18,974 nucleotides of DNA from a virus (lineage: Duplodnaviria > Heunggongvirae > Uroviricota > Caudoviricetes), in IMG/VR virus record IMGVR_UViG_3300036876_000145, positions 83,489-102,462 of that record. One strand, written 5' to 3'. Positions within the stretch are counted from its first letter, which is position 1. Every line of letters starts with the position of its first letter. Positions 1-7,766 of this stretch are shown here, in pieces. The notes beneath the pieces were generated by a model. That model ran no database searches and was not told the DNA's origin. It saw nothing but the letters and a program-made list of their open reading frames with translations. The position numbers and the translations under genes are program-made.

Positions 1-213
1 CTAAATCAATGCTGCATTCGGGAATTCTCGTCGCCTCGGGATACGTGGAGTCGTTAAACGACTGCGGACAGTGTGTAAGTCTGGCGAAAGCTAGCAACGC
101 TGGTTGAAACAGTTAAGGGCGGCTTTGCCGCCTAGAATCCCTCGCCTTTAGGCGTGGGGAGTATCAAGCTATGAAAACTGGGCATTTGGAGTTTCTATTT
201 CGGTGAGACGACT

Positions 214-393
214 ATGCATCATTTTTTGATTAATTTGTTGTGGATAACTCTATTGGCCTTTCCATTTGGCGTTATTAGTTCAATTTGGTGTCATTTAATC
301 GGATTCGTACCTCCAAAAGGATGGCGTTTCTTTGTTTATGATATACCATCGTTTGTGTTCGGAATAATTCTCGGATTTTATTTTTTCAAATAA
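214..393 (+). CDS. putative small membrane protein (59 aa, two hydrophobic segments: MHHFLINLLWITLLAFPFGVISSIWCHLIGFVPPKGWRFFVYDIPSFVFGIILGFYFFK)
   Basis: ATG at 214 runs to TAA at 391-393. It is absent from the ORF track only because it is under 60 aa. The hydrophobic composition is typical of a small membrane protein (a holin-like protein is one possibility). The RBS is weak (GGTGAG upstream). Confidence 0.3.
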   Translation: MHHFLINLLWITLLAFPFGVISSIWCHLIGFVPPKGWRFFVYDIPSFVFGIILGFYFFK

Positions 394-897
394 TACTTGA
401 CTTTTGGTATTCTATATGAGACAATGTTTTTAGGTTAAGCCTGCGGAATAACGCTATTCGCCCTGGATGGAGAAACAACCCGATGGGCAAAGGGTGTGAA
501 TAACCCACTTGCATAGTGCCGCAGCCCCCACTTACGCCCCTGTATTCACCGGGGATGAAAGACGCAGGGGGTAACAATTTTAGGTTTACTGGTCGCATAA
601 GGATCGACAAAAACCGCAGGGCTAGACTCCTTGTGGCACAAATCGGTCGCTCGTCTAGGAGAAACCGGTTCCTAAGAATCGGCGATCAGTTTTTAAAGAA
701 GTGACGGCGCAGGAATAATGGCGCGGAATCGTGGTCGTAAGCAGCCGAAGGAGTGTCCTGGCAGCGAATGGATACTTCTGAGATGGGAACGCTATATAGG
801 ACTTACGAGCGGCGTTGTTTAGCAGTAGAAAAGCAACTGACGAGGTCCCCGGCTCACTTCTCCACTTTGTAATACTGCAACTGAAAGTGAGGAAGCA

Positions 898-2124
898 GTG
901 AGGAAACCGTTTTGCGTGCTGTGCATTTTCGCGCTCTGTCTTGAATCTGCTATGATGAGAAAAAAGAAGAGAACACCAGCCAAAGAATCTGCCCCGAAGT
1001 CTGTTCATATGGCTTTCAGAAGCAAGGAATTTGCAGGCATTCAGGCGGCTCTTGGCCGTCATCTGTGCCTGTCGTCCGCTAACGCACTCGTAGCGCAGGG
1101 CGATTCGCTGGAAATACTCCGCCAGCTGCCTAACCAATCCATCTCGCTCATTTTGACCGATCCGCCGTACCACTCAACGAAGAAGGACAACATTTACGGC
1201 GACACTTCGTTTGGGCATGACCAACACTATATTGAATGGATGACGCAGTACGCGAAGGAGTGGCGTCGCGTGCTGCGGCCCAACGGCTCGTTATATTGCT
1301 TCTGTGCTTCTGAGATGGCTGCACGCCTTGAAGTCATGCTCGCTAAGGATTTCAATATTCTCTCCAGCATCACGTGGACGAAGCCCAACGACCCTGGCTT
1401 CGACGGTTGGAAGGGCAAGATGAAGAAGGAATCCCTCCGGCAGTGGTATCCGCATTCGGAGCGAATCATCTTTGCAGAGATCGCGGTAGAGGGCAACCTG
1501 CACCGTTCTCCGTTTGGAGACTTTCTGCGAGCGACCAGGAAAAACGTGAACATGAGTGCTCACGAACTGGCTGGGTTGATCGGTGCGTATGGGAATGTCA
1601 ACCACGGTGGAGCGGTCTGCAATTGGGAAGCTGGGCGTAACATCCCGAGCCGGGAACAATATCGCAGAATCTGCGAGGCGATACTCACCACTGGCAAGAT
1701 GAAGTCGATGCCGCCATACGAAGACGCCGTTCGCCCGTTCTTCATGGACGGCTCAAAAGAATTCACTGACGTCTGGAATTTTCCATCTGTCCGTCCATAC
1801 AAAGGCAAGCACCCTGCTGAGAAACCTGCGTCCCTTCTGGAACACGTGATTGGGGCGTCATCATATCAAGGCGACATTGTGCTGGATTGTTTTGCAGGGT
1901 CAGGAAGTACGGCCTTGGCTGCTCTTAAACTAAACCGCCGCGCAGTCGCTATAGAGATTGATCCCCAGTGGGCTTCTGAGGTTGCAGCTCGGGTTCGGGC
2001 TTGTGGTGCGGAGAGTGCGGTCGCAGAATTGAAGGAGCACGACGCCAGAGTGATCCACGCTCCCAAGCTCAACCCGAAGGTGCCTCAATACGCGCTATCA
2101 TTTGACGGCAACGGTCGTGAGTAG
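898..2124 (+). CDS. orphan DNA methyltransferase, beta-class N6-adenine/N4-cytosine type (DPPY motif IV precedes FAGSGST motif I)
   Basis: The translation contains LILTDPPYH (motif IV) and later VLDCFAGSGSTALAA (motif I, AdoMet binding), the beta-class order. No restriction endonuclease partner is visible. The start is uncertain: the track gives GTG 898, with in-frame GTG 916 (GAGGAA SD about 10 nt upstream) and ATG 952 as alternatives. GC content is higher than in the neighbouring genes. Confidence 0.85.
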   Translation: MRKPFCVLCIFALCLESAMMRKKKRTPAKESAPKSVHMAFRSKEFAGIQAALGRHLCLSSANALVAQGDSLEILRQLPNQSISLILTDPPYHSTKKDNIYGDTSFGHDQHYIEWMTQYAKEWRRVLRPNGSLYCFCASEMAARLEVMLAKDFNILSSITWTKPNDPGFDGWKGKMKKESLRQWYPHSERIIFAEIAVEGNLHRSPFGDFLRATRKNVNMSAHELAGLIGAYGNVNHGGAVCNWEAGRNIPSREQYRRICEAILTTGKMKSMPPYEDAVRPFFMDGSKEFTDVWNFPSVRPYKGKHPAEKPASLLEHVIGASSYQGDIVLDCFAGSGSTALAALKLNRRAVAIEIDPQWASEVAARVRACGAESAVAELKEHDARVIHAPKLNPKVPQYALSFDGNGRE

Positions 2125-2415
2125 ATAACCAGCCTTTTGGTTGCGTTCCAATACGGACTGCATCCACTCGACTGTCTTCTGTATTCCTGAATCTTTCACT
2201 ACCACGTTGCAGTGATGGTGCCCCTCCTCCGAAGACGGCCAAGCAACACATAAAACTCGAACACCGCATCGATAGCTTTTTGCGCGTATTCAGGAACACT
2301 TTTGTCCTCATAGGACTTCAAGCATTCGATCTCAACCTCGCGGTTGATGTTAGGGTTGACATAATGCGCCAGACTCCAAGCTTTCTAGAAAGTTTTGTTA
2401 GCCATAAAATTTTTC

Positions 2416-2444
2416 TTGACAATAAGTCAAAGTTTTAGTAATAT
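2416..2444 (+). promoter_or_regulatory. sigma70-like promoter: TTGACA (2416-2421), 17-nt spacer, TAATAT (2439-2444). The -35 lies inside the inverted repeat TTGAC-aataa-GTCAA.
   Basis: Near-consensus -35 and -10 hexamers with ideal 17-bp spacing, about 20 nt upstream of the ATG at 2463. The palindrome TTGACAATAAGTCAA overlapping the -35 is operator-like. Confidence 0.55.
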
Positions 2445-2462
2445 CAGTATTAAGGTATAGAG

Positions 2463-2570
2463 ATGAATAAGATTCACACCAACTCGAACGCAGTCTGTAC
2501 GGAACACGGTACTGTCGCCGCTGCTGCGGCGGTAGGAGATACTGTGTCCTCGGATGGTTGGGACGGTTAA
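2463..2570 (+). CDS. 35-aa peptide (MNKIHTNSNAVCTEHGTVAAAAAVGDTVSSDGWDG); it could instead be an incidental ORF within a small RNA
   Basis: ATG at 2463 has AAGGT 7 nt upstream and TAA at 2568-2570. It sits exactly between a strong promoter and an intrinsic terminator, so the whole transcript is about 170 nt. Confidence 0.35.
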   Translation: MNKIHTNSNAVCTEHGTVAAAAAVGDTVSSDGWDG

Positions 2571-2595
2571 ATAACTCAACCTAAAAGATTCCGAG

Positions 2596-2629
2596 GACGC
2601 CATCAAAAAATGGCGTCTTTTTTGTTTTG
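2596..2629 (+). terminator. rho-independent terminator: GACGCCAT-caaaaa-ATGGCGTC stem-loop followed by TTTTTTGTTTTG
   Basis: Perfect 8-bp GC-rich stem, 6-nt loop and a 12-nt T-rich tract read directly from the sequence. Confidence 0.7.
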
Positions 2630-2639
2630 CGGTGAATGT

Positions 2640-2718
2640 ATTCCGATGGCGTGAGCGGCGAAACCACTTGCCCTACAAGCAAGTATCATCGGGGGTTCGA
2701 GTCCCTCTCGGAATACCA
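2640..2718 (+). tRNA. tRNA-Val(UAC)-like with aberrant D-arm and C33
   Basis: Perfect 7-bp acceptor (ATTCCGA/TCGGAAT), A73 and an encoded CCA. T-arm is GGGGG-TTCGAGT-CCCTC. Anticodon stem is CTTGC/GCAAG with loop CCTACAA, giving anticodon TAC. No convincing 4-bp D-stem could be found in 2649-2665. Confidence 0.45.
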
Positions 2719-2729
2719 AATTTTAATGT

Positions 2730-2804
2730 GTGGGTGTCGTCCAATGGGAGGACTTTCGGTTTGCACCCGGAGAATGCGAGTTCGAGTCTCGTCACTCTAC
2801 ACCA
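2730..2804 (+). tRNA. tRNA-Ala(UGC)
   Basis: Acceptor GTGGGTG has the G3:U70 Ala identity pair. D-stem is GTCC/GGAC. Anticodon stem is TTCGG/CCGGA with loop TTTGCAC. The T-loop is TTCGAGT and CCA is encoded. There are two mismatches at the base of the acceptor and one extra nt before the discriminator. Confidence 0.55.
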
Positions 2805-2896
2805 AATGTGCCGTCCGCGACGGTGATAGATACCAGAAAGCTCTTCGGAGCGCTGGAATGGGGATCAGCCCCTTAGTCATCGCGGCTAAATTTATA

Positions 2897-2970
2897 AGCG
2901 GATTAGCCAAGTGGTTAAAGGCATCTGCCTGCAAAGCAGACAAGCACGGGTTCGAATCCCGTATCCGCTT
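2897..2970 (+). tRNA. tRNA-Cys(GCA)
   Basis: Perfect 7-bp acceptor (AGCGGAT/ATCCGCT) with a U73 discriminator, as expected for Cys. Anticodon stem is TCTGC/GCAGA with loop CTGCAAA. T-arm is ACGGG-TTCGAAT-CCCGT. CCA is not encoded. Confidence 0.75.
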
Positions 2971-2979
2971 CCCAAATTT

Positions 2980-3056
2980 GGGGGTATAGTTCCAACTGGT
3001 AGAACAGCGGCTTGTCGCGCCGATGGTTGCGGGTTCGAATCCCGTTACCCCCGCCA
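2980..3056 (+). tRNA. tRNA-Asp(GUC) variant (anticodon loop TTGTCGC with G37)
   Basis: Acceptor is GGGGGTA/TACCCCC with G73 and encoded CCA. D-stem is GTTC/GAAC. The anticodon stem has 4 bp plus a G:A mismatch, and the anticodon is GTC. T-arm is GCGGG-TTCGAAT-CCCGT. Confidence 0.55.
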
Positions 3057-3060
3057 GTTT

Positions 3061-3138
3061 GGTGTGTTGGAGGAGTCTGGTCTTCCTCGCTTCCCTGTCA
3101 CGGAAGATATCACACGGGTTCAAATCCCGTACACACCG
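3061..3138 (+). tRNA. tRNA-Asp(GUC)
   Basis: Acceptor is GGTGTGT/ACACACC with G73. Anticodon stem is CTTCC/GGAAG with the canonical Asp loop CTGTCAC. T-arm is ACGGG-TTCAAAT-CCCGT. CCA is not encoded. Confidence 0.75.
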
Positions 3139-3147
3139 CTTTCGTGA

Positions 3148-3179
3148 CTTCCTGAGTATTAAGTAGAGTACTCAGGAAG
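3148..3179 (+). promoter_or_regulatory. 11-bp perfect inverted repeat (CTTCCTGAGTA ... TACTCAGGAAG) sequestering the SD of the GIY-YIG gene
   Basis: The 3' arm contains the AGGAAGG Shine-Dalgarno, and the ATG at 3184 lies 4 nt after the stem. The loop is TTAAGTAGAG. No T-tract follows, so this is not an intrinsic terminator. Confidence 0.5.
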
Positions 3180-3183
3180 GTTC

Positions 3184-3834
3184 ATGATGAAATACACAGT
3201 CTACAAAACTGTGAATCTGGTCAACGGCAAGTTCTACATCGGTGTCCACAAGACGGACAATCCGAATGATGACTACCTTGGTTCTGGGAAGTTCATCAAA
3301 CGAGCCGTTGCGAAGTACGGAGAGCAGAATTTTCGCAAGGAAATTTTGGCTGTCTTTGAAATCCAGAGAGAAGCTTTCGATCTCGAAAAGAAACTCGTGG
3401 TTGAAGCGAAAGTTGATCCACTGTGTTACAACCTGAAAGCTGGCGGTGAAGGTGGGTTTGACTGGATCAATCGTAAGGGATTGAATAACTCGAACGAGAA
3501 CGGCGTGAAAGGAAATCGGGTTACAATTGGAAAAATAAAAACTGACCCAAAGGTAAAGAAGCGATTTACTGACAGGATCAATCGAGTTAGACAGTATCGT
3601 ACTCAAGACTACAAAGCTCGAATTCCTTCGATGTTACAAAAGTGGACAGGACAGCATCATACCGCCGAGACAAAGGCTAGACTTAGCGAAACGCATAAAG
3701 GTAAGAGCAACGGACGCTTTGGAAAACAGTGGATGTATCATCTCGAATCGCAGAGATCAAAGCCTGTCTCACCGGACGAGATCAATAGCCACATTGAACA
3801 AGGTTGGTTGATTGGTCGCCGGATGAAATTTTAG
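3184..3834 (+). CDS. GIY-YIG homing endonuclease (Seg/I-TevI-like) with a C-terminal NUMOD3-like repeat
   Basis: The N-terminus YTVYKTVNLVNGKFYIGV carries the GIY..YIG motif with downstream R and E residues. The C-terminal TGQHHTAETKARLSETHKGKSNGRFGKQW resembles NUMOD3 DNA-binding repeats. The gene sits inside the tRNA array. Confidence 0.85.
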   Translation: MMKYTVYKTVNLVNGKFYIGVHKTDNPNDDYLGSGKFIKRAVAKYGEQNFRKEILAVFEIQREAFDLEKKLVVEAKVDPLCYNLKAGGEGGFDWINRKGLNNSNENGVKGNRVTIGKIKTDPKVKKRFTDRINRVRQYRTQDYKARIPSMLQKWTGQHHTAETKARLSETHKGKSNGRFGKQWMYHLESQRSKPVSPDEINSHIEQGWLIGRRMKF

Positions 3835-3841
3835 GAGAGAC

Positions 3842-4054
3842 GTGAAGATTCTCTACGATGAACAGCGGCATCTGATCACGGTGCCGTACTCGAAAGAGAA
3901 TCTACATGAAGCAGCGCGGCAGTTGGGTATTAAGCGTTGCTGGTTTCACAAAGACCACTACGACGTTCCTAAGAGAATGATGTCTCGGATGTCGGAGACG
4001 GTAGCAGAAAAAGTTTCGCCGCGTGAAGTTTTGAAGATCGTGCGCGGCAAGTAA
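3842..4054 (+). CDS. DUF4031-like small phage protein (70 aa, HYDVP motif)
   Basis: GTG start with a GGAGAGA SD. The sequence MKILYDEQRHLITVPYSKENLHEAARQLGIKRCWFHKDHYDVPKRMMSR matches my recollection of the DUF4031 pattern (..A..lGl.r.Wfq...HYDl). The family assignment is from memory, not from a search. Confidence 0.55.
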   Translation: MKILYDEQRHLITVPYSKENLHEAARQLGIKRCWFHKDHYDVPKRMMSRMSETVAEKVSPREVLKIVRGK

Positions 4055-4058
4055 GTTT

Positions 4059-4135
4059 GGATGGATAGCCAAGTAGGAAAGGCGCTCCCCTGCAAAGGGA
4101 GTCATGCGGGGGTTCAATTCCCTCTCCATCCTCCA
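4059..4135 (+). tRNA. tRNA-Cys(GCA), second divergent copy
   Basis: Perfect acceptor GGATGGA/TCCATCC with U73 and encoded CCA. Anticodon stem is CTCCC/GGGAG with loop CTGCAAA. T-arm is GGGGG-TTCAATT-CCCTC. Confidence 0.75.
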
Positions 4136-4530
4136 AATGTACCAGTTCGGGACAACCGCTGGCAGGAAGTTTCTGCGGGAGGGAAAGTTCGGGGCTTCAT
4201 AGAGTACCGTGCGGGGTAACTCCCCGGCGACGGCGCAAGCCGTTGACAATTAGAGCTACAGAGACGAGTCACAGAAGGTGTGCTTGGAAGCGCGTAAGAT
4301 TCACGTCGGTAGTGTTGATGTGAAATGCCCGACCAAGTCCCCTGATGTGGGTGAAACGAGCAATCTTCACGGGAAGCAAGTGCAAATAGGCTGACAGGAA
4401 CTACTCGTTCCGTTATGAATCAGCGGGTAGCATGCTTGAGCGTTGGAGTAATTCAACGCCTAGACGAATGGTTGTCGCCGCGCAAGCGGAACAGAACCCC
4501 GGCTAATAGGACTGGTACAAGTTTATGAGT
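4136..4530 (+). other. about 395-nt noncoding, GC-rich, hairpin-dense region (candidate structured RNA or long leader) between tRNA-Cys and the HNH gene
   Basis: There is no plausible ORF on either strand apart from a spurious minus-strand ORF overlapping the tRNA. Local stems are present, for example GGGGTAACTCCCC and GCGCAAGC. Confidence 0.25.
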
Positions 4531-4542
4531 TTTTGAACTATG

Positions 4543-4568
4543 AGCGACCTATATTAGAGAGGTCGCTC
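4543..4568 (+). promoter_or_regulatory. 8-bp inverted repeat (GAGCGACC ... GGTCGCTC) placing the HNH SD/start at the loop/3'-arm junction
   Basis: The loop is TATATTAGAG. The SD GAGAGG (4557-4562) straddles the loop and 3' arm. The GTG at 4569 immediately follows the stem. Confidence 0.45.
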
Positions 4569-5006
4569 GTGACAAGTCAAAAAGAAGTTCAAAGACAATT
4601 AGGAATGAGTCGAGGAACCGCCAACTACAGATTGGCGCGTCTTTTACTCTTCAAATACATGCAGCAAGCTGGGGCGGACAACTGTTTTCGCTGCGGTCTA
4701 AAGCTTGAAACGGTTGAAGATTTTAGTATTGAGCATAAAAAACCGTGGTTGTACGCATCCCCAGATTTATATTGGGATTTGGAAAATATTGCTTTTTCGC
4801 ATCGCGCATGTAATTCGGGCGCAGCTAGACAGATCAATAAGACCAAAATGAGTCTTAGATCAGTAGGACCGGAAGGAACAAGTTGGTGTACGGAACATAA
4901 ACAGTTTCTTTCAGTCGATGAATTTCAAAAAAATTCCGCTATTTGGAACGGCTTACAAAGGCAATGCAAAGAATGCCGACAAAAGCGAAATAAAAAGCGG
5001 GCTTAG
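4569..5006 (+). CDS. HNH homing endonuclease (HNH_3-like)
   Basis: CFRCG...EHKKPW...HRACN is an HNH motif. The preferred start is GTG 4569, which has GAGAGG 6 nt upstream; the track's longest ORF starts at TTG 4533. The last 10 nt overlap the 5' end of tRNA-Gly. Confidence 0.8.
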   Translation: MTSQKEVQRQLGMSRGTANYRLARLLLFKYMQQAGADNCFRCGLKLETVEDFSIEHKKPWLYASPDLYWDLENIAFSHRACNSGAARQINKTKMSLRSVGPEGTSWCTEHKQFLSVDEFQKNSAIWNGLQRQCKECRQKRNKKRA

Positions 5007-5073
5007 CTCACGCTGGTAGAGCGCTGGTCTTCCAAACCGGAGGTAACGGGATCGTCGCCCGTAGTCCGCTCCA
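4997..5073 (+). tRNA. tRNA-Gly(UCC) with an unusual T-loop (ATCGTCG)
   Basis: Acceptor is GCGGGCT/AGTCCGC (one G:U pair) with U73 and encoded CCA. D-stem is GCTC/GAGC. Anticodon stem is CTGGT/ACCGG with loop CTTCCAA. Confidence 0.65.
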
Positions 5074-5084
5074 AGTTTAGATAT

Positions 5085-5160
5085 GGCGCACTCTGCTAAC
5101 GGCTAGGCAACCACGTTCTCAGCGTGTGAAATGTGGGTTCAAATCCCGCGTGCGCTACCA
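5085..5160 (+). tRNA. tRNA-Glu(CUC)
   Basis: Acceptor is GGCGCAC/GTGCGCT with A73 and encoded CCA. D-stem is TGCT/GGCA. Anticodon stem is CCACG/CGTGT (4 bp) with loop TTCTCAG. T-arm is GTGGG-TTCAAAT-CCCGC. Confidence 0.6.
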
Positions 5161-5167
5161 GATTTTG

Positions 5168-5224
5168 GCTGACCATGTTCGGCAAGGTCAGCGGTTGGGG
5201 GACATGGCTCAGTACAACCGCTGA
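5168..5224 (+). other. pair of mutually exclusive hairpins (GCTGACC/GGTCAGC 7 bp; TCAGCGGTTG/CAACCGCTGA 10 bp) in a tRNA spacer
   Basis: The 3' arm of hairpin 1 (5186-5192) overlaps the 5' arm of hairpin 2 (5189-5198). The segment is not tRNA-like. Confidence 0.4.
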
Positions 5225-5231
5225 TAACCGT

Positions 5232-5307
5232 GGGGCTATGGCGCAGTTGGGAGCGCGTAATCATGGCATGATTAAGGCCGTCGGTTCGAACCCGACTAGC
5301 TCCACCA
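5232..5307 (+). tRNA. tRNA-Ala(GGC)
   Basis: Acceptor GGGGCTA/TAGCTCC has G3:U70, with A73 and encoded CCA. D-stem is GCGC/GCGC. Anticodon stem is TAATC/GATTA with loop ATGGCAT. T-arm is GTCGG-TTCGAAC-CCGAC. Confidence 0.75.
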
Positions 5308-5313
5308 GATTTT

Positions 5314-5388
5314 GCGGAAGTAGTTCAGCGGTAGAATATTTCCTTGCCAAGGAAGGGGTCGCGGGTTCAAATCCCGCCTTCCGCTCCA
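5314..5388 (+). tRNA. tRNA-Gly(GCC)
   Basis: Acceptor is GCGGAAG/CTTCCGC with U73 and encoded CCA. Anticodon stem is TTTCC/GGAAG with loop TTGCCAA. T-arm is GCGGG-TTCAAAT-CCCGC. Confidence 0.8.
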
Positions 5389-5399
5389 AGTTTAGAAGT

Positions 5400-5461
5400 T
5401 CATGGATGCCTAGATGTCGGTGGCTAACCGAAAGGTCGCGGGTTCAATGTCCGTTCCATGT
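5400..5461 (+). pseudogene. 62-nt tRNA-like element lacking a D-arm (pseudo-tRNA or armless tRNA)
   Basis: There is a 6-bp acceptor-like closing stem (CATGGA/TCCATG), an anticodon-like hairpin GTCGG-TGGCTAA-CCGAA, and a T-arm-like GCGGG-TTCAATG-TCCGT. Only 9 nt lie between the acceptor and the anticodon stem. There is no spacer before the next tRNA. Confidence 0.35.
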
Positions 5462-5537
5462 GGGGCTATAGCGCAGTTGGGAGCGCGTCTCGTTCGCAAC
5501 GAGAAGGTCGTGAGTTCGAATCTCACTAGCTCCACCA
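5462..5537 (+). tRNA. tRNA-Ala(CGC)
   Basis: Acceptor GGGGCTA/TAGCTCC has G3:U70, with A73 and encoded CCA. Anticodon stem is TCTCG/CGAGA with loop TTCGCAA. T-arm is GTGAG-TTCGAAT-CTCAC. Confidence 0.75.
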
Positions 5538-5544
5538 AGTTATT

Positions 5545-5617
5545 GCGGGTGTAGTTCAATGGTAGAATATTCGGTTCCCAACCGAAAGATTTGTCGGTTC
5601 GAGTCCGACCATCCGCT
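5545..5617 (+). tRNA. tRNA-Gly(CCC)
   Basis: Acceptor is GCGGGTG/CATCCGC with U73; CCA is not encoded. Anticodon stem is TTCGG/CCGAA with loop TTCCCAA. T-arm is GTCGG-TTCGAGT-CCGAC. Confidence 0.75.
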
Positions 5618-5624
5618 CCGTTTT

Positions 5625-5768
5625 ATGAGAGAGTGTCCAAAGTGCGGTAAGAAAGAACAATGGGAAATCGGTTGGATTTCTACTACCAATGAATGGCGCT
5701 GGCATTGTCTGTCTTGTGATATTCGTTTTAATGATGATGGCGTAATTTACACACCAGAAAAAGTTTAG
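5625..5768 (+). CDS. 47-aa zinc-ribbon protein (CPKCG ... CLSCD)
   Basis: ATG at 5625 is in frame with the track ORF 5559-5768, whose upstream part overlaps tRNA-Gly and is rejected. Two CxxC pairs are present: MRECPKCGKKEQWEIGWISTTNEWRWHCLSCDIRFNDDGVIYTPEKV. The SD is weak. Confidence 0.4.
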   Translation: MRECPKCGKKEQWEIGWISTTNEWRWHCLSCDIRFNDDGVIYTPEKV

Positions 5769-5791
5769 GGCCGTGGGACTGCATTGGGGTG

Positions 5792-5819
5792 GTTCGAATC
5801 TCACTAGCTCCACCAAGTT
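5792..5819 (+). repeat. 28-bp exact direct repeat of the 3' end of tRNA-Ala(CGC) (5514-5541), giving a 3' tRNA fragment with no 5' half
   Basis: GTTCGAATCTCACTAGCTCCACCAAGTT is identical at both sites. The upstream sequence at the second site cannot form a T-stem or an acceptor. Confidence 0.6.
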
Positions 5820-5822
5820 TAC

Positions 5823-5926
5823 GTAGGCTTCCGAGGGATACCTCGGTGACAGTTGTTCTGAGGTCATCTCTTCATGAGGGGCTGAACAGGGAACGGCAGC
5901 GTGGGGAAACCCACAAGCCTACACCA
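5823..5926 (+). ncRNA. 104-nt structured RNA of unknown class, closed by the 8-bp stem GTAGGCTT/AAGCCTAC and ending in ACCA
   Basis: The internal hairpins are perfect: CCGAGG-GATA-CCTCGG (6 bp, 4-nt loop) and GTGGG-GAAA-CCCAC (GNRA tetraloop). Its position in the array and its A-CCA end are tRNA-like, but there is no 7-nt T-loop. Confidence 0.35.
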
Positions 5927-5929
5927 TTT

Positions 5930-6005
5930 GCGCTGTTAGATTAGCGGTAAAATCGTCACCATGACAAGGTGAAAATCGGGGGTTCGATTCCCTCACGGCG
6001 CACCA
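5930..6005 (+). tRNA. tRNA-Val(GAC)
   Basis: Acceptor is GCGCTGT/ACGGCGC with A73 and encoded CCA. D-stem is GATT/AATC. Anticodon stem is TCACC/GGTGA with loop ATGACAA. T-arm is GGGGG-TTCGATT-CCCTC. Confidence 0.75.
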
Positions 6006-6017
6006 GTTTTTAAATAT

Positions 6018-6095
6018 GGCGTTGTCTTCTAAATGGTCTAGGAAAACTGACTTTCAATCAGTGGAATGCCGGTTCAACTCCGGTCAACGCTACCA
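6018..6095 (+). tRNA. tRNA-Glu(UUC)
   Basis: Acceptor is GGCGTTG/CAACGCT with A73 and encoded CCA. Anticodon stem is ACTGA/TCAGT with loop CTTTCAA. T-arm is GCCGG-TTCAACT-CCGGT. Confidence 0.75.
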
Positions 6096-6102
6096 GAATT
6101 GA

Positions 6103-6177
6103 GAGGGAGTAGCTCAGCGGTAGAGCAGAATATTGCCAATATTCAGGTCGCGGGTTCAACTCCCGTCTCCCTCTCCA
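6103..6177 (+). tRNA. tRNA-Gly(GCC), second copy
   Basis: Acceptor is GAGGGAG/CTCCCTC with U73 and encoded CCA. D-stem is GCTC/GAGC. Anticodon stem is GAATA/TATTC with loop TTGCCAA. T-arm is GCGGG-TTCAACT-CCCGT. Confidence 0.75.
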
Positions 6178-6372
6178 ACATTTATGCGAATCTATTCAAA
6201 AGTTTATTTTCGCTTTATGGTGTGTTATGAGAAAACTAAAGAGACTAAGCAAGGTCAAACTCGTGAAGGAAATGTCCAGGGAGAGGGTGCCAGTCCCCGC
6301 GACCCGCAAGATTGAAAATAAGAAAAAGAAATTTTTGCGTTACTTAGAAACACATTGGCAGGAAGATGAATT

Positions 6373-6448
6373 GGGGGTATAGCTCAGCTGGGAGAGCGCA
6401 TCGTTTGCAACGATGAGGTCGTCGGTTCGATCCCGTCTACCTCCACCA
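6373..6448 (+). tRNA. tRNA-Ala(UGC), bacterial-type (5' end GGGGGTATAGCTCAGCTGGGAGAGCGC)
   Basis: Acceptor GGGGGTA/TACCTCC has G3:U70, with A73 and encoded CCA. Anticodon stem is CATCG/CGATG with loop TTTGCAA. The T-loop is TTCGATC. Confidence 0.8.
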
Positions 6449-6463
6449 AAATTTAGGGGATGT

Positions 6464-6823
6464 ATGTTAAAGGAATTAAACGACTACAACTGGGCTGAAG
6501 TATTTGGTGAGGGAAGCGGTGGAAACTGCTTTTCGATCAAGCCAAATCGTGCCCCACAAGATACGGAGACATCCATTGGTACGTTTTCCCGCGAGGATGT
6601 AAAAAAACTCTATGGGCAATCTGACGGTGAAAATGATGAACAAAGTTGGGTATGTTGGGGTAAACTAAAAGACGGTCGCTGGTTTGTTGCTCGTGGCGAC
6701 TGCGATTACACCGGCTGGGATTGCAGTGCATCTAATAGCGGAGATGTTGCATCGTCTAAAAAAGATATTATCCGTTTTGGGCTTGATGCTAACGAGCGAT
6801 CACGTTTTAATTTGACGATTTAA
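6464..6823 (+). CDS. hypothetical protein (119 aa, Trp/Cys/Gly-rich)
   Basis: Internal ATG at 6464 of track ORF 6413-6823 has AGGGGA upstream; the part of the track ORF upstream of 6464 overlaps tRNA-Ala. No recognisable motifs. Confidence 0.55.
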   Translation: MLKELNDYNWAEVFGEGSGGNCFSIKPNRAPQDTETSIGTFSREDVKKLYGQSDGENDEQSWVCWGKLKDGRWFVARGDCDYTGWDCSASNSGDVASSKKDIIRFGLDANERSRFNLTI

Positions 6824-6845
6824 AATTTTGATTACGGCTCACAGC

Positions 6846-7019
6846 CTATCTTCCTCGTAATCTCTGCCGTAATTTAGTCATAGGGTTATGCGCCACTTTA
6901 GCTGCCCTCTTAACCACGGGGCAATCACTCATTTTTTTAGCACAACGTGGTAAATCTCCTCGCTGCCCCCACACCTTACCTGGTTGACCGCATCCGTATT
7001 GACAGTAAACTTCATCCAT
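6846..7019 (-). CDS. possible 57-aa Cys4 zinc-ribbon protein (MDEVYCQYGCGQPGKVWGQRGDLPRCAKKMSDCPVV...)
   Basis: Found by manual reverse-strand translation; it is under 60 aa and so not in the track. It carries four Cys residues. There is no SD, and its start overlaps the + strand promoter prediction. Confidence 0.25.
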   Translation of the reverse strand: MDEVYCQYGCGQPGKVWGQRGDLPRCAKKMSDCPVVKRAAKVAHNPMTKLRQRLRGR

Positions 7020-7027
7020 ATTAAATA
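6999..7027 (+). promoter_or_regulatory. sigma70-like promoter: TTGACA (6999-7004), 17-nt spacer, TAAATA (7022-7027)
   Basis: Consensus -35, 17-bp spacer and an A/T-rich -10, about 45 nt upstream of the phosphoesterase ATG. Confidence 0.45.
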
Positions 7028-7032
7028 CATGC

Positions 7033-7066
7033 GGTATTATAGATAATGGGGTATTATAGATAATGG
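7033..7066 (+). repeat. tandem direct repeat, 2 x 17 bp GGTATTATAGATAATGG, plus a partial third copy (GGTACTTAT), in the leader of the phosphoesterase gene
   Basis: Read directly from the sequence. Each unit carries TATTAT and TAGATAAT, which are -10-like elements. Confidence 0.6.
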
Positions 7067-7073
7067 GGTACTT

Positions 7074-7766
7074 ATGCCAAAAATAGTTTTTATTTCAGAT
7101 ACTCATGGGTTACACGGTCAGATGCAGGTGCCCGAAGGAGATATTTTAGTTCATGCTGGAGATATGACTAATGTAGGGCGTATAAATGAAGTTGCTGCCT
7201 TGGGCGTATGGCTCCGTGAAATGGAAAAACGTTTTAAATTTATCGTGATCGTCGCGGGTAATCACGATTGGCTTTTTCAGAAAAATAGAGCCTTGGCTGA
7301 AAGCCTGATAAATCAAGGTACAATGGGAGAAGCTACGGGTAAAATCATCTATTTACAAGATAGTGGAGTTACAATTGATGGCTTAAAAATACATGGAAGT
7401 CCTCAAACTCCTTGGTTTTTTGATTGGGCCTTTAATGTACGCCGAGGAGAACTTAAGCCCTATTGGGATAAGATCCCTGAAGGTCTGGACATATTAATTA
7501 CTCACGGTCCTCCCAGTGGTATACTGGATCAAGCAGACCCTCATTTAGGCAGTGAACATGTAGGCTGTGAAGAACTTATGGAAGCGGTGGAGCGCACCAA
7601 ACCAAAAATCCATGTATTCGGACATATACATGGCGGGTATGGTAAAATGGAACATGTGAATACCACATTTATCAATGCTTCAATTTGCGATGAACGGTAC
7701 AAACCGATTAACGCCCCTTGGGTTATTGATATGGAGCCCCGTGATACACATGGCGAAGAAAAATAA
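7074..7766 (+). CDS. calcineurin-like metallophosphoesterase (binuclear metal phosphatase/phosphodiesterase)
   Basis: The MPP signature motifs are present: FISDTHG, HAGDMTN, VAGNHD, ITHGPP and GHIHGGYG. Confidence 0.85.
   Translation: MPKIVFISDTHGLHGQMQVPEGDILVHAGDMTNVGRINEVAALGVWLREMEKRFKFIVIVAGNHDWLFQKNRALAESLINQGTMGEATGKIIYLQDSGVTIDGLKIHGSPQTPWFFDWAFNVRRGELKPYWDKIPEGLDILITHGPPSGILDQADPHLGSEHVGCEELMEAVERTKPKIHVFGHIHGGYGKMEHVNTTFINASICDERYKPINAPWVIDMEPRDTHGEEK

Follow-up and report, generated by a model that had tools for sequence, protein, structure and literature searches.

The window analysed here, a stretch of 18,974 nucleotides (nt), comes from a virus of the class Caudoviricetes (IMG/VR record IMGVR_UViG_3300036876_000145, positions 83,489 to 102,462). 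Our subject is an array of tRNA genes at positions 2640-6448, which encloses a gene for RNase P RNA and has a short leader frame and a terminator in front of it. ARAGORN identified 16 tRNA genes in the array, all on the + strand and all for Val, Ala, Asp, Glu, Gly or Cys. They are listed below, each called by both ARAGORN and Rfam unless stated otherwise; names with L denote contigs and loci introduced further on.

2640..2718, + strand, tRNA-Val(UAC), with C33
2728..2804 (ARAGORN 2730-2800), + strand, tRNA-Ala(UGC) no. 1, atypical acceptor/D-arm junction; 71-nt orthologue kept in L019, L020, L024 and L030
2896..2974, + strand, tRNA-Cys(GCA) no. 1
2980..3056, + strand, tRNA-Asp(GUC) no. 1
3061..3139, + strand, tRNA-Asp(GUC) no. 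2, without encoded CCA
4059..4135, + strand, tRNA-Cys(GCA) no. 2, 3 nt before the RNase P RNA; junction identical in L019 and L020
4997..5073, + strand, tRNA-Gly(UCC), with a non-canonical T loop
5085..5160, + strand, tRNA-Glu(CUC) (ARAGORN, relaxed Rfam)
5232..5307, + strand, tRNA-Ala(GGC)
5314..5388, + strand, tRNA-Gly(GCC) no. 1
5462..5537, + strand, tRNA-Ala(CGC), 81% identical to Ala(GGC)
5545..5619, + strand, tRNA-Gly(CCC), without encoded CCA
5930..6005, + strand, tRNA-Val(GAC)
6018..6095, + strand, tRNA-Glu(UUC)
6103..6177, + strand, tRNA-Gly(GCC) no. 2
6373..6448, + strand, tRNA-Ala(UGC) no. 2

All 16 genes match Rfam family RF00005 at 40-71 bits, with a gathering score of 29; 15 came up in the default search, and Glu-CUC (43 bits) only after the filters were relaxed. 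The relaxed search of positions 1-7100 gave no extra tRNA, no T-box and no other family, and no further tRNA was found elsewhere in the window or in the 9 kb upstream, read from overlapping contigs. A preliminary description of this DNA had parsed the anticodons by hand as UAC, UGC, GCA, GUC, GUC, GCA, UCC, CUC, GGC, GCC, CGC, CCC, GAC, UUC, GCC and UGC. The ARAGORN series is identical and is confirmed by Rfam, and the re-annotation contains only decoders of G-initial (GNN) codons or of Cys. The combined decoding capacity of the array covers all 16 GNN codons plus UGY, in agreement with the complete isoacceptor sets that had been claimed, and the duplicate isoacceptors are indeed divergent, with a maximum identity of 73%. 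For an even draw from 20 amino acids, the probability that 16 of 16 tRNAs fall within a set of six would be about 4e-9 by our own arithmetic.

The identity elements named in the same description were recovered in most of the genes: U73 in the four Gly genes and the second Cys gene, A73 in both Val and three Ala genes, G73 in both Asp genes, and G3:U70 in three Ala genes. Two genes, Ala-UGC (2730) and Cys (2896), are ambiguous on the ARAGORN structures. The Ala gene has G3:U70 and A73 only if its 5' end is set at 2728, a register backed by its ACCA end and by the orthologues in L019, L020 and L024; the Cys gene has an 8-bp acceptor stem, or else a UCCCA tail. With the exception of these two, the identity elements match the anticodons. 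We considered and rejected an origin of the Cys tRNAs from remoulded Gly(GCC) genes, since their D loops resemble those of bacterial tRNA-Cys and their similarity to the Gly genes is not especially close.

The same restriction is found in related viruses. A search with the HhH protein of the window yielded two IMG/VR contigs, L019 (332 kb) and L020 (170 kb), with 71-73% protein identity; each carries 16-17 tRNAs in much the same order, again GNN and Cys decoders only, with Val-CAC included. Searches with an RNase P RNA pattern and with the GIY-YIG protein gave eight further GNN+Cys arrays on contigs of up to 463 kb. All 157 confident tRNAs of these 11 loci are GNN or Cys decoders (Ala 40, Gly 32, Val 29, Cys 19, Glu 19, Asp 18), one odd call with a 4-base anticodon standing outside this set; thus the restriction is conserved and not a product of chance. 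The arrays examined in other huge phages are eclectic (28 tRNAs in L074, 29 in L112, 33 in L142), which upholds the earlier view of an unusual, non-random composition. In L061, a ribonucleotide reductase with a LAGLIDADG intein (positions 1-2685) lies upstream of the array.

Two explanations of the array in terms of tRNA supply can be weighed against these data. According to the first, it replaces host tRNAs destroyed by a host or phage anticodon nuclease to which the phage copies are resistant. Complete isoacceptor sets, including C34 tRNAs for codons rare in the phage, fit such replacement better than compensation for codon bias, and calcineurin-type phosphoesterases flank the arrays of many huge phages, a role of these in RNA-end healing being speculation. 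However, the anticodon loops are mostly canonical across the 157 tRNAs, which lends the idea no support, and we know of no nuclease that targets the GNN+Cys set of tRNAs. Since other arrays, described below, cover most other amino acids, a GNN-specific nuclease is not implied either, and we consider replacement improbable.

The second explanation, also put forward in the preliminary description, is that the array serves translation of the Gly/Ala/Val-rich fibre genes downstream. The window contains three very large frames rich in Gly, Ser and Thr, whose fibre label derives from a weak match to a phage fibre in Pfam; the family search of the window recognised no virion gene. The array lies upstream of fibre-like genes in the window and also in L019, L020 and L061, which have homologues of orf227 and of the first fibre gene of the window after their arrays, and Gly (12%), Ala and Val are commoner in the fibres than in other genes. 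Codon usage speaks against this explanation: GNN codons account for 33.2% of codons in the fibres, compared with 31.5% outside them; Asp and Glu are depleted in the fibres, yet have two tRNAs each; ANN codons, equally frequent at 33% of fibre codons, are read by no tRNA of the array; and Cys is rare (0.3-2.2%). The codon counts contradict this explanation, which we regard as very improbable.

Between the second tRNA-Cys and tRNA-Gly(UCC) the array contains a gene of a different kind:

4139..4522, + strand, RNase P RNA, bacterial class A (Rfam RF00010, 169 bits, gathering score 100, model positions 1-367)

The gene is present in all ten other loci of the clade (139-208 bits). In L019 and L020 it stands directly between tRNA-Cys and tRNA-Gly(UCC), so that tRNA processing on both sides would release it; the window copy is followed by an inserted HNH gene. 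For nine of these RNAs, RNAalifold predicts 75 pairs, 45 of them with compensatory double changes, including pairs in P1, P4, P8, P15-17 and P18. The P4 pseudoknot with its bulged U and conserved flanks is present, its pairs covary (columns 85-92 with 510-516), and the window and L019 RNAs have one extra compensated P4 pair. Features shared with RF00010 are P1-P5, P7-P12, P15-P18, the P4 pseudoknot, and the GAGGAAAGU and ACAGAA stretches; unlike the norm of that family, the RNA is phage-encoded in a tRNA array, is devoid of P13/P14, and carries a module of 45-70 nt in P12, P9 or P3, depending on the phage. The module (GUGUGCUUGGAAGCG, a hairpin, CCCAACCAAGUCCCC) is found at 4286-4357 in the window, within a P12 expanded by about 70 nt, in the P9 region in L030, L055 and L061, and in P3 in L034 and L052; it may replace the missing P13/P14. 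The covariance model confirmed RNase P RNA on at least 17 large viral contigs, and in six other large contigs (118-300 bits) it lies in mixed arrays. An exact scan of IMG/VR for the P4 variant of the window gave no match in a collection that does not include the window's own contig, and GenBank phages gave none to the window (megablast) or to the RNase P RNA (blastn). It is well supported that this is a conserved, structured gene; its product would presumably act as a ribozyme together with a protein partner.

A bacterial class A RNA in a phage record raises the question of whether a stretch of bacterial chromosome, a host tRNA operon with rnpB, was misjoined to phage DNA, and several array-less IMG/VR pattern matches at contig edges do resemble host rnpB at prophage borders. 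Yet the order tRNA-Cys, RNase P RNA, tRNA-Gly is found deep within viral contigs of 170-463 kb, among phage genes, homing endonucleases are embedded in the array, and the reduced ribozyme co-diverges with the phages. In the window itself the recognised proteins are phage-like, namely a DNA methyltransferase, GIY-YIG and HNH homing endonucleases, a metallophosphoesterase and the HhH protein, which matches PHROG only; with these matches and the relatives on long IMG/VR contigs, the array is placed in a phage genome. The window was, moreover, assembled independently in many samples, with the same 16 tRNAs in every copy spanning the array. Its phosphoesterase occurs with identical sequence in 155 blocks of a public assembly collection (longest contig 95 kb), and many of the contigs listed are, by their record names, from peat or bog samples. 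An assembly error is thus hardly credible.

Calcineurin-type metallophosphoesterases are seen on both sides of the array (window 7074-7766; L008 8170-8772). This 200-aa family has 395 relatives on viral contigs, near tRNA arrays in several of the loci examined.

Confinement to one codon class, as originally described, holds for this array and fails at the level of the genome. Scanning IMG/VR for a protein family located just upstream of a different array revealed a second array on contigs that hold GNN+Cys arrays (L251, L220, L219, L239, L227, L232 and L246). It comprises Tyr x3, Leu x5 and Pro x4 in L251 (the 332-kb contig), running past the locus end; Tyr, Leu x5, Pro x3 and Met in L220 (the 170-kb contig), running on; and Tyr, Leu, Phe, Pro, Gln, Met and Phe in L219 (the 463-kb contig). 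In the two closest relatives, the contig ranges place the start of the second array about 35-39 kb downstream from the first; loci L024 and L103 do not overlap. Because the same contigs hold both, the restriction is a property of the array, not of the genome. A third kind, for Trp, His, Arg, Gln, Asn and Lys, is present on the separate contigs L057 and L063, where a nucleotidyltransferase-like protein (GGS...HG...D.D; L063 3067-4047, L057 5623-6414) is encoded just upstream. A scan for this marker found only these two already known contigs; therefore the Trp/His/Arg array remains unlinked to contigs of the GNN clade.

For the window phage, a homologue of the protein that marks the second array is encoded on contigs recovered from the same samples, where Tyr and four Leu tRNAs come after it. 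These Tyr/Leu contigs and the window (positions 1-167) have a 167-nt element in common, at 97% identity, and some contigs end at this element. Attempts to join the window to the Tyr/Leu array failed: a search with the partial third fibre gave only fragments, and an exact copy of the L253 exonuclease was found only on a 902-bp contig; the non-GNN tRNA sequences are too divergent for exact-pattern searches. The shared element belongs to a repeated non-coding family of about 170-270 nt and 90-97% identity (window 1-167, L253 15420-15565, L002 2844-3094), located upstream of both array regions, with hairpins and with different small frames after it. A lone candidate tRNA-Ala(UGC) adjoins the start of the gene for the second-array marker protein, which lies ahead of the Tyr/Leu array (L253 9971, L224 9887). 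Other large phages (L071, L102, L134) have Glu-only mini-arrays (UUC, CUC; 3-4 copies) with a small frame, such as MSSFLREYEQRNFRERL, upstream, and tmRNA genes adjoin the tRNA arrays of some huge phages (L050 3697-4050, L053 7997-8332, L054 11520-11873).

Upstream of the GNN+Cys array of the window lies a compact leader region with the following elements:

2416..2444, + strand, sigma-70-like promoter, TTGACA-17 nt-TAATAT, 10 of 12 consensus matches
2463..2570, + strand, leader frame MNKIHTNSNAVCTEHGTVAAAAAVGDTVSSDGWDG, 35 codons plus TAA, presumably translated; a similar frame in 11 of 11 clade loci
2514..2533, + strand, hairpin GUCGCCGC-UGCU-GCGGCGGU within the Val/Ala codon run of the leader, stem conserved in 8 sequences
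2544..2554, + strand, predicted 5' arm of an antiterminator, leader codons 28-31, pairing with 2590-2599 (RNAalifold)
2590..2600, + strand, predicted 3' arm of the antiterminator, overlapping the 5' arm of the terminator (RNAalifold, folding)
2593..2628, + strand, intrinsic terminator with its stem at 2593-2620 and a U run after it, 11 nt upstream of the first tRNA, conserved across the clade

The leader ATG is preceded by AAGG 8 nt upstream. In the 11 loci the frames are of 32-48 codons, and frame length and stop position are kept. Residues V, A, D, E, G and C make up 53-67% of the leaders (61% overall) against 34% of the window proteins, in runs of 7-21 such residues, and every one of the 11 leaders has one or two Cys codons. 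Nucleotide identity of the leader region across the clade is 70-80%, above the conservation of the proteins. Five of the ten pairs of the antiterminator helix show compensatory changes in the RNAalifold prediction. The promoter has a counterpart before the Tyr/Leu array of L253, where TTGACA-17-TATTAT lies at -222 from the first tRNA, compared with -224 in the window. A first reading of the leader as an 8-codon frame, on which ribosome occupancy would make termination more likely, was dropped, since distant relatives show the longer in-frame leader.

The response of the leader RNA to a ribosome was modelled by placing a ribosome-sized mask at each leader codon and refolding the RNA. With no ribosome, the free RNA forms a terminator stem of 8 bp. 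With the mask on codons 10-20 or 23-24, a terminator of 4-5 bp stands beside a 9-bp antiterminator, and with the mask on codon 26 or codons 28-35 the terminator reaches 10 bp (7 bp for codon 27). The predicted folding is that of classical leader-peptide attenuation in its geometry.

Leaders of the other arrays follow the amino acids of their own tRNAs. In the 16 leaders that precede Tyr/Leu arrays, Leu accounts for 22%, Ser for 18% and Tyr for 6%, and all 16 include codons for every one of the four Leu anticodons; in two arrays with three Ser tRNAs the leader has 10-11 Ser codons, compared with 2-7 elsewhere. The leaders of the Pro/Met/Phe sub-arrays read MNTMRPFTMFRP and similar, and those of the Trp/His/Arg/Gln/Asn/Lys arrays contain ...KRNSAKNQRWHRN... 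In a matrix of leaders by arrays, the diagonal values are 0.54/0.49/0.30/0.37 against backgrounds of 0.34/0.20/0.14/0.20, the own array is the best fit for 32 of 34 leaders, and only one of the 24 assignments of array sets to leader classes reaches this score.

These observations bear on the possibility that the sorting reflects history only: blocks of tRNA genes were captured, duplicated in tandem and altered by anticodon drift, the promoter, small gene and terminator are ordinary, and the tRNAs simply add to the host pool. Isoacceptors are indeed nearest to each other (the three most similar Ala genes are 78-81% identical, the Gly genes 71-72%), the Ala-Gly pairs resemble tandem duplications and a defective Ala copy is left over, homing endonucleases keep reshuffling the arrays, and the evidence for attenuation is in silico. 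What such a history does not predict is the enrichment of the leaders in the amino acids of their own arrays in four classes, Cys codons in 11 of 11 GNN+Cys leaders, Ser-rich leaders where there are Ser tRNAs, or a covarying helix that competes with the terminator. We regard history alone as an unlikely explanation of the sorting.

On comparative and in silico grounds, gating of each array by a leader written in its own codons would be the most economical account of both the sorting and the odd inclusion of Cys. We consider it fairly probable that each array forms its own tRNA operon, with leader-peptide attenuation as its gate and the phage ribozyme processing the transcript. The stronger statement, that the tRNA genes were sorted into operons because an own-codon leader peptide controls each of them, with the phage RNase P ribozyme maturing the products, is a tentative one, about which we have somewhat more doubt than belief.

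In the proposed mechanism, a very large peat phage would have several tRNA operons, each for a codon class, and the array would be one of them, laid out as a promoter-like site (2416-2444), leader frame (2463-2570), terminator (2593-2628) and first tRNA, the leader being rich in codons read by the downstream tRNAs for Val, Ala, Gly, Asp, Glu and Cys. When charged tRNAs are scarce, the ribosome would stall on codons 10-24; segment 2544-2554 would then pair with 2590-2600, the terminator stem would shorten, and RNA polymerase would read into the array. When they are plentiful, the ribosome would reach the stop codon and cover the 2544-2554 arm, and the full terminator would form. Read-through would give a polycistronic precursor of 16 tRNAs and the RNase P RNA, from which the phage ribozyme, probably with the host RnpA protein, would cut the tRNA 5' ends; in the layout of L019 and L020, taken as ancestral, the ribozyme itself would be freed by processing of the flanking tRNAs. 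The mature tRNAs would decode all 16 GNN codons and UGY, and the array would be limited to GNN plus Cys because that is the set governed by this leader. Other leaders would likewise govern the Tyr/Leu(/Ser), Pro/Met/Phe and Trp/His/Arg/Gln/Asn/Lys arrays.

Several points weigh against this mechanism. As to attenuation, we infer translation of the leader, the termination response and the direction of control, and co-transcription of the array is likewise presumed. The thermodynamic model weakens the terminator without abolishing it, the free RNA keeping its 8 bp; the G-rich codons of the leader also serve the RNA helices; and sigma-70-like promoters are found ahead of only some of the relatives' arrays. 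Since leaders within one class are homologous, the matrix amounts to only about four independent comparisons. As to the ribozyme, P13/P14 were not found in the RNase P RNA, where 43-44 model positions correspond to 0-1 nt, the CCA-binding GGU motif was not recognised by eye in L15, and a crude motif search, which is a weak test, gave no RnpA-like frame (RNR motif) in the examined loci. The window phage is linked to a Tyr/Leu array by shared samples and the 97%-identical repeat, which is circumstantial. Finally, L224, a 75.8-kb IMG/VR contig of the window phage, gave no match in either exact RNase P RNA pattern scan, and therefore the gene order in this phage may differ from that of L019 and L020.

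The proposed control resembles known systems in part. The leaders trpL, hisL, leuL, pheL, thrL and ilvL are leader-peptide attenuators of amino-acid operons. Like these, the region has a short promoter-proximal frame rich in codons tied to the product under control, an antiterminator overlapping the terminator, and regulatory codons located 5' of the antiterminator arm. In contrast to them, it would control tRNAs rather than biosynthetic enzymes, a single leader would sample six amino acids, and the setting is a phage. As the controlled genes are tRNAs, the sensed product would be the decoder itself. T-box riboswitches also couple the supply of charged tRNA to terminator read-through; however, the T-box binds tRNA directly and needs no translation, whereas here the leader is an open frame and there is no T-box match.

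The arrays themselves can be compared with the phage tRNA clusters of T4, T5, KVP40 and huge phages, presumed to support translation of phage genes. They are alike in having numerous tRNA genes, all on one strand, with short spacers, interspersed homing endonucleases and small stable RNAs of unknown role. Unlike the known clusters, the arrays described here are split by codon or amino-acid class with complete isoacceptor sets, each is preceded by a leader frame and a terminator, and one contains an RNase P RNA gene. Arrays on bacterial chromosomes and plasmids are long, horizontally mobile tRNA runs with about one tRNA per amino acid; to our knowledge, they show no restriction to a class and have not been described as containing RNase P RNA or leader frames. 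Our literature searches found no report of RNase P RNA in a phage, of arrays restricted to GNN decoders or of tRNA operons under attenuation. Huge phages carry up to 67 tRNAs (PMC7162821), and RNase P is not mentioned in this main survey of them.

The array of the window also contains insertions, remnants and candidate RNAs:

2803..2893, + strand, conserved structured spacer RNA between tRNA-Ala and tRNA-Cys, closing helix CCGCGA/UCGCGG replaced by CCCGGA/UCCGGG in L019 and L020
3184..3834, + strand, GIY-YIG homing endonuclease (phrog_314, 2.5e-43), absent from this site in L019
3842..4054, + strand, DUF4031 protein, part of the GIY-YIG insertion (family search)
4569..5006, + strand, HNH endonuclease, an insertion that separates RNase P RNA from tRNA-Gly; not present in L019 or L020, whose RNase P RNA directly adjoins tRNA-Gly(UCC)
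5389..5461, + strand, putative degenerate tRNA-like remnant with acceptor-like and T-arm-like stems and no D arm, read from the sequence; no Rfam match at E<=1
5769..5822, + strand, tRNA-Ala 3' fragment, a duplicated Ala 3' end, of which 5792-5822 matches Ala 3' ends in L019 and L030
5823..5925, + strand, tRNA-like RNA candidate, stem GUAGGCUU/AAGCCUAC followed by ACCA, read from the sequence; no Rfam match

Relatives of the GIY-YIG protein, 37-48% identical, lie within tRNA arrays of seven other viral contigs (L056-L063), and these endonucleases appear to use tRNA arrays as a target niche. The spacer RNA at 2803-2893 has no Rfam match. The remnants at 5389-5461 and 5769-5822 are traces of duplication or insertion events in the array. 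The candidate at 5823-5925 is about 100 nt long; its terminal stem of 8 bp resembles the acceptor end of a tRNA, and it has neither T nor D arm. It is reminiscent of the small stable RNAs, of unknown role, in the tRNA region of T4. A 69-codon frame with CxxC pairs (5559-5768) begins within tRNA-Gly(CCC); several assemblies have it annotated as a gene.

Codon bias and evasion of host nucleases are the usual explanations for tRNA genes in phages, and the question of how such genes are regulated is seldom raised. If the mechanism proposed here is correct, attenuation would act on the tRNA genes themselves, with one sensor per codon class, which would explain their sorting into separate arrays. 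The phage RNase P RNA extends the range of translation-related functions carried by huge phages, and these RNAs amount to a natural collection of reduced class A ribozymes whose peripheral module is movable. The leaders would be natural sensors of decoding capacity for chosen sets of codons. If the more tentative, stronger statement above also holds, the arrays would constitute a direct feedback loop on decoding capacity, by which the virus would regulate and process its own tRNA pool largely by itself.

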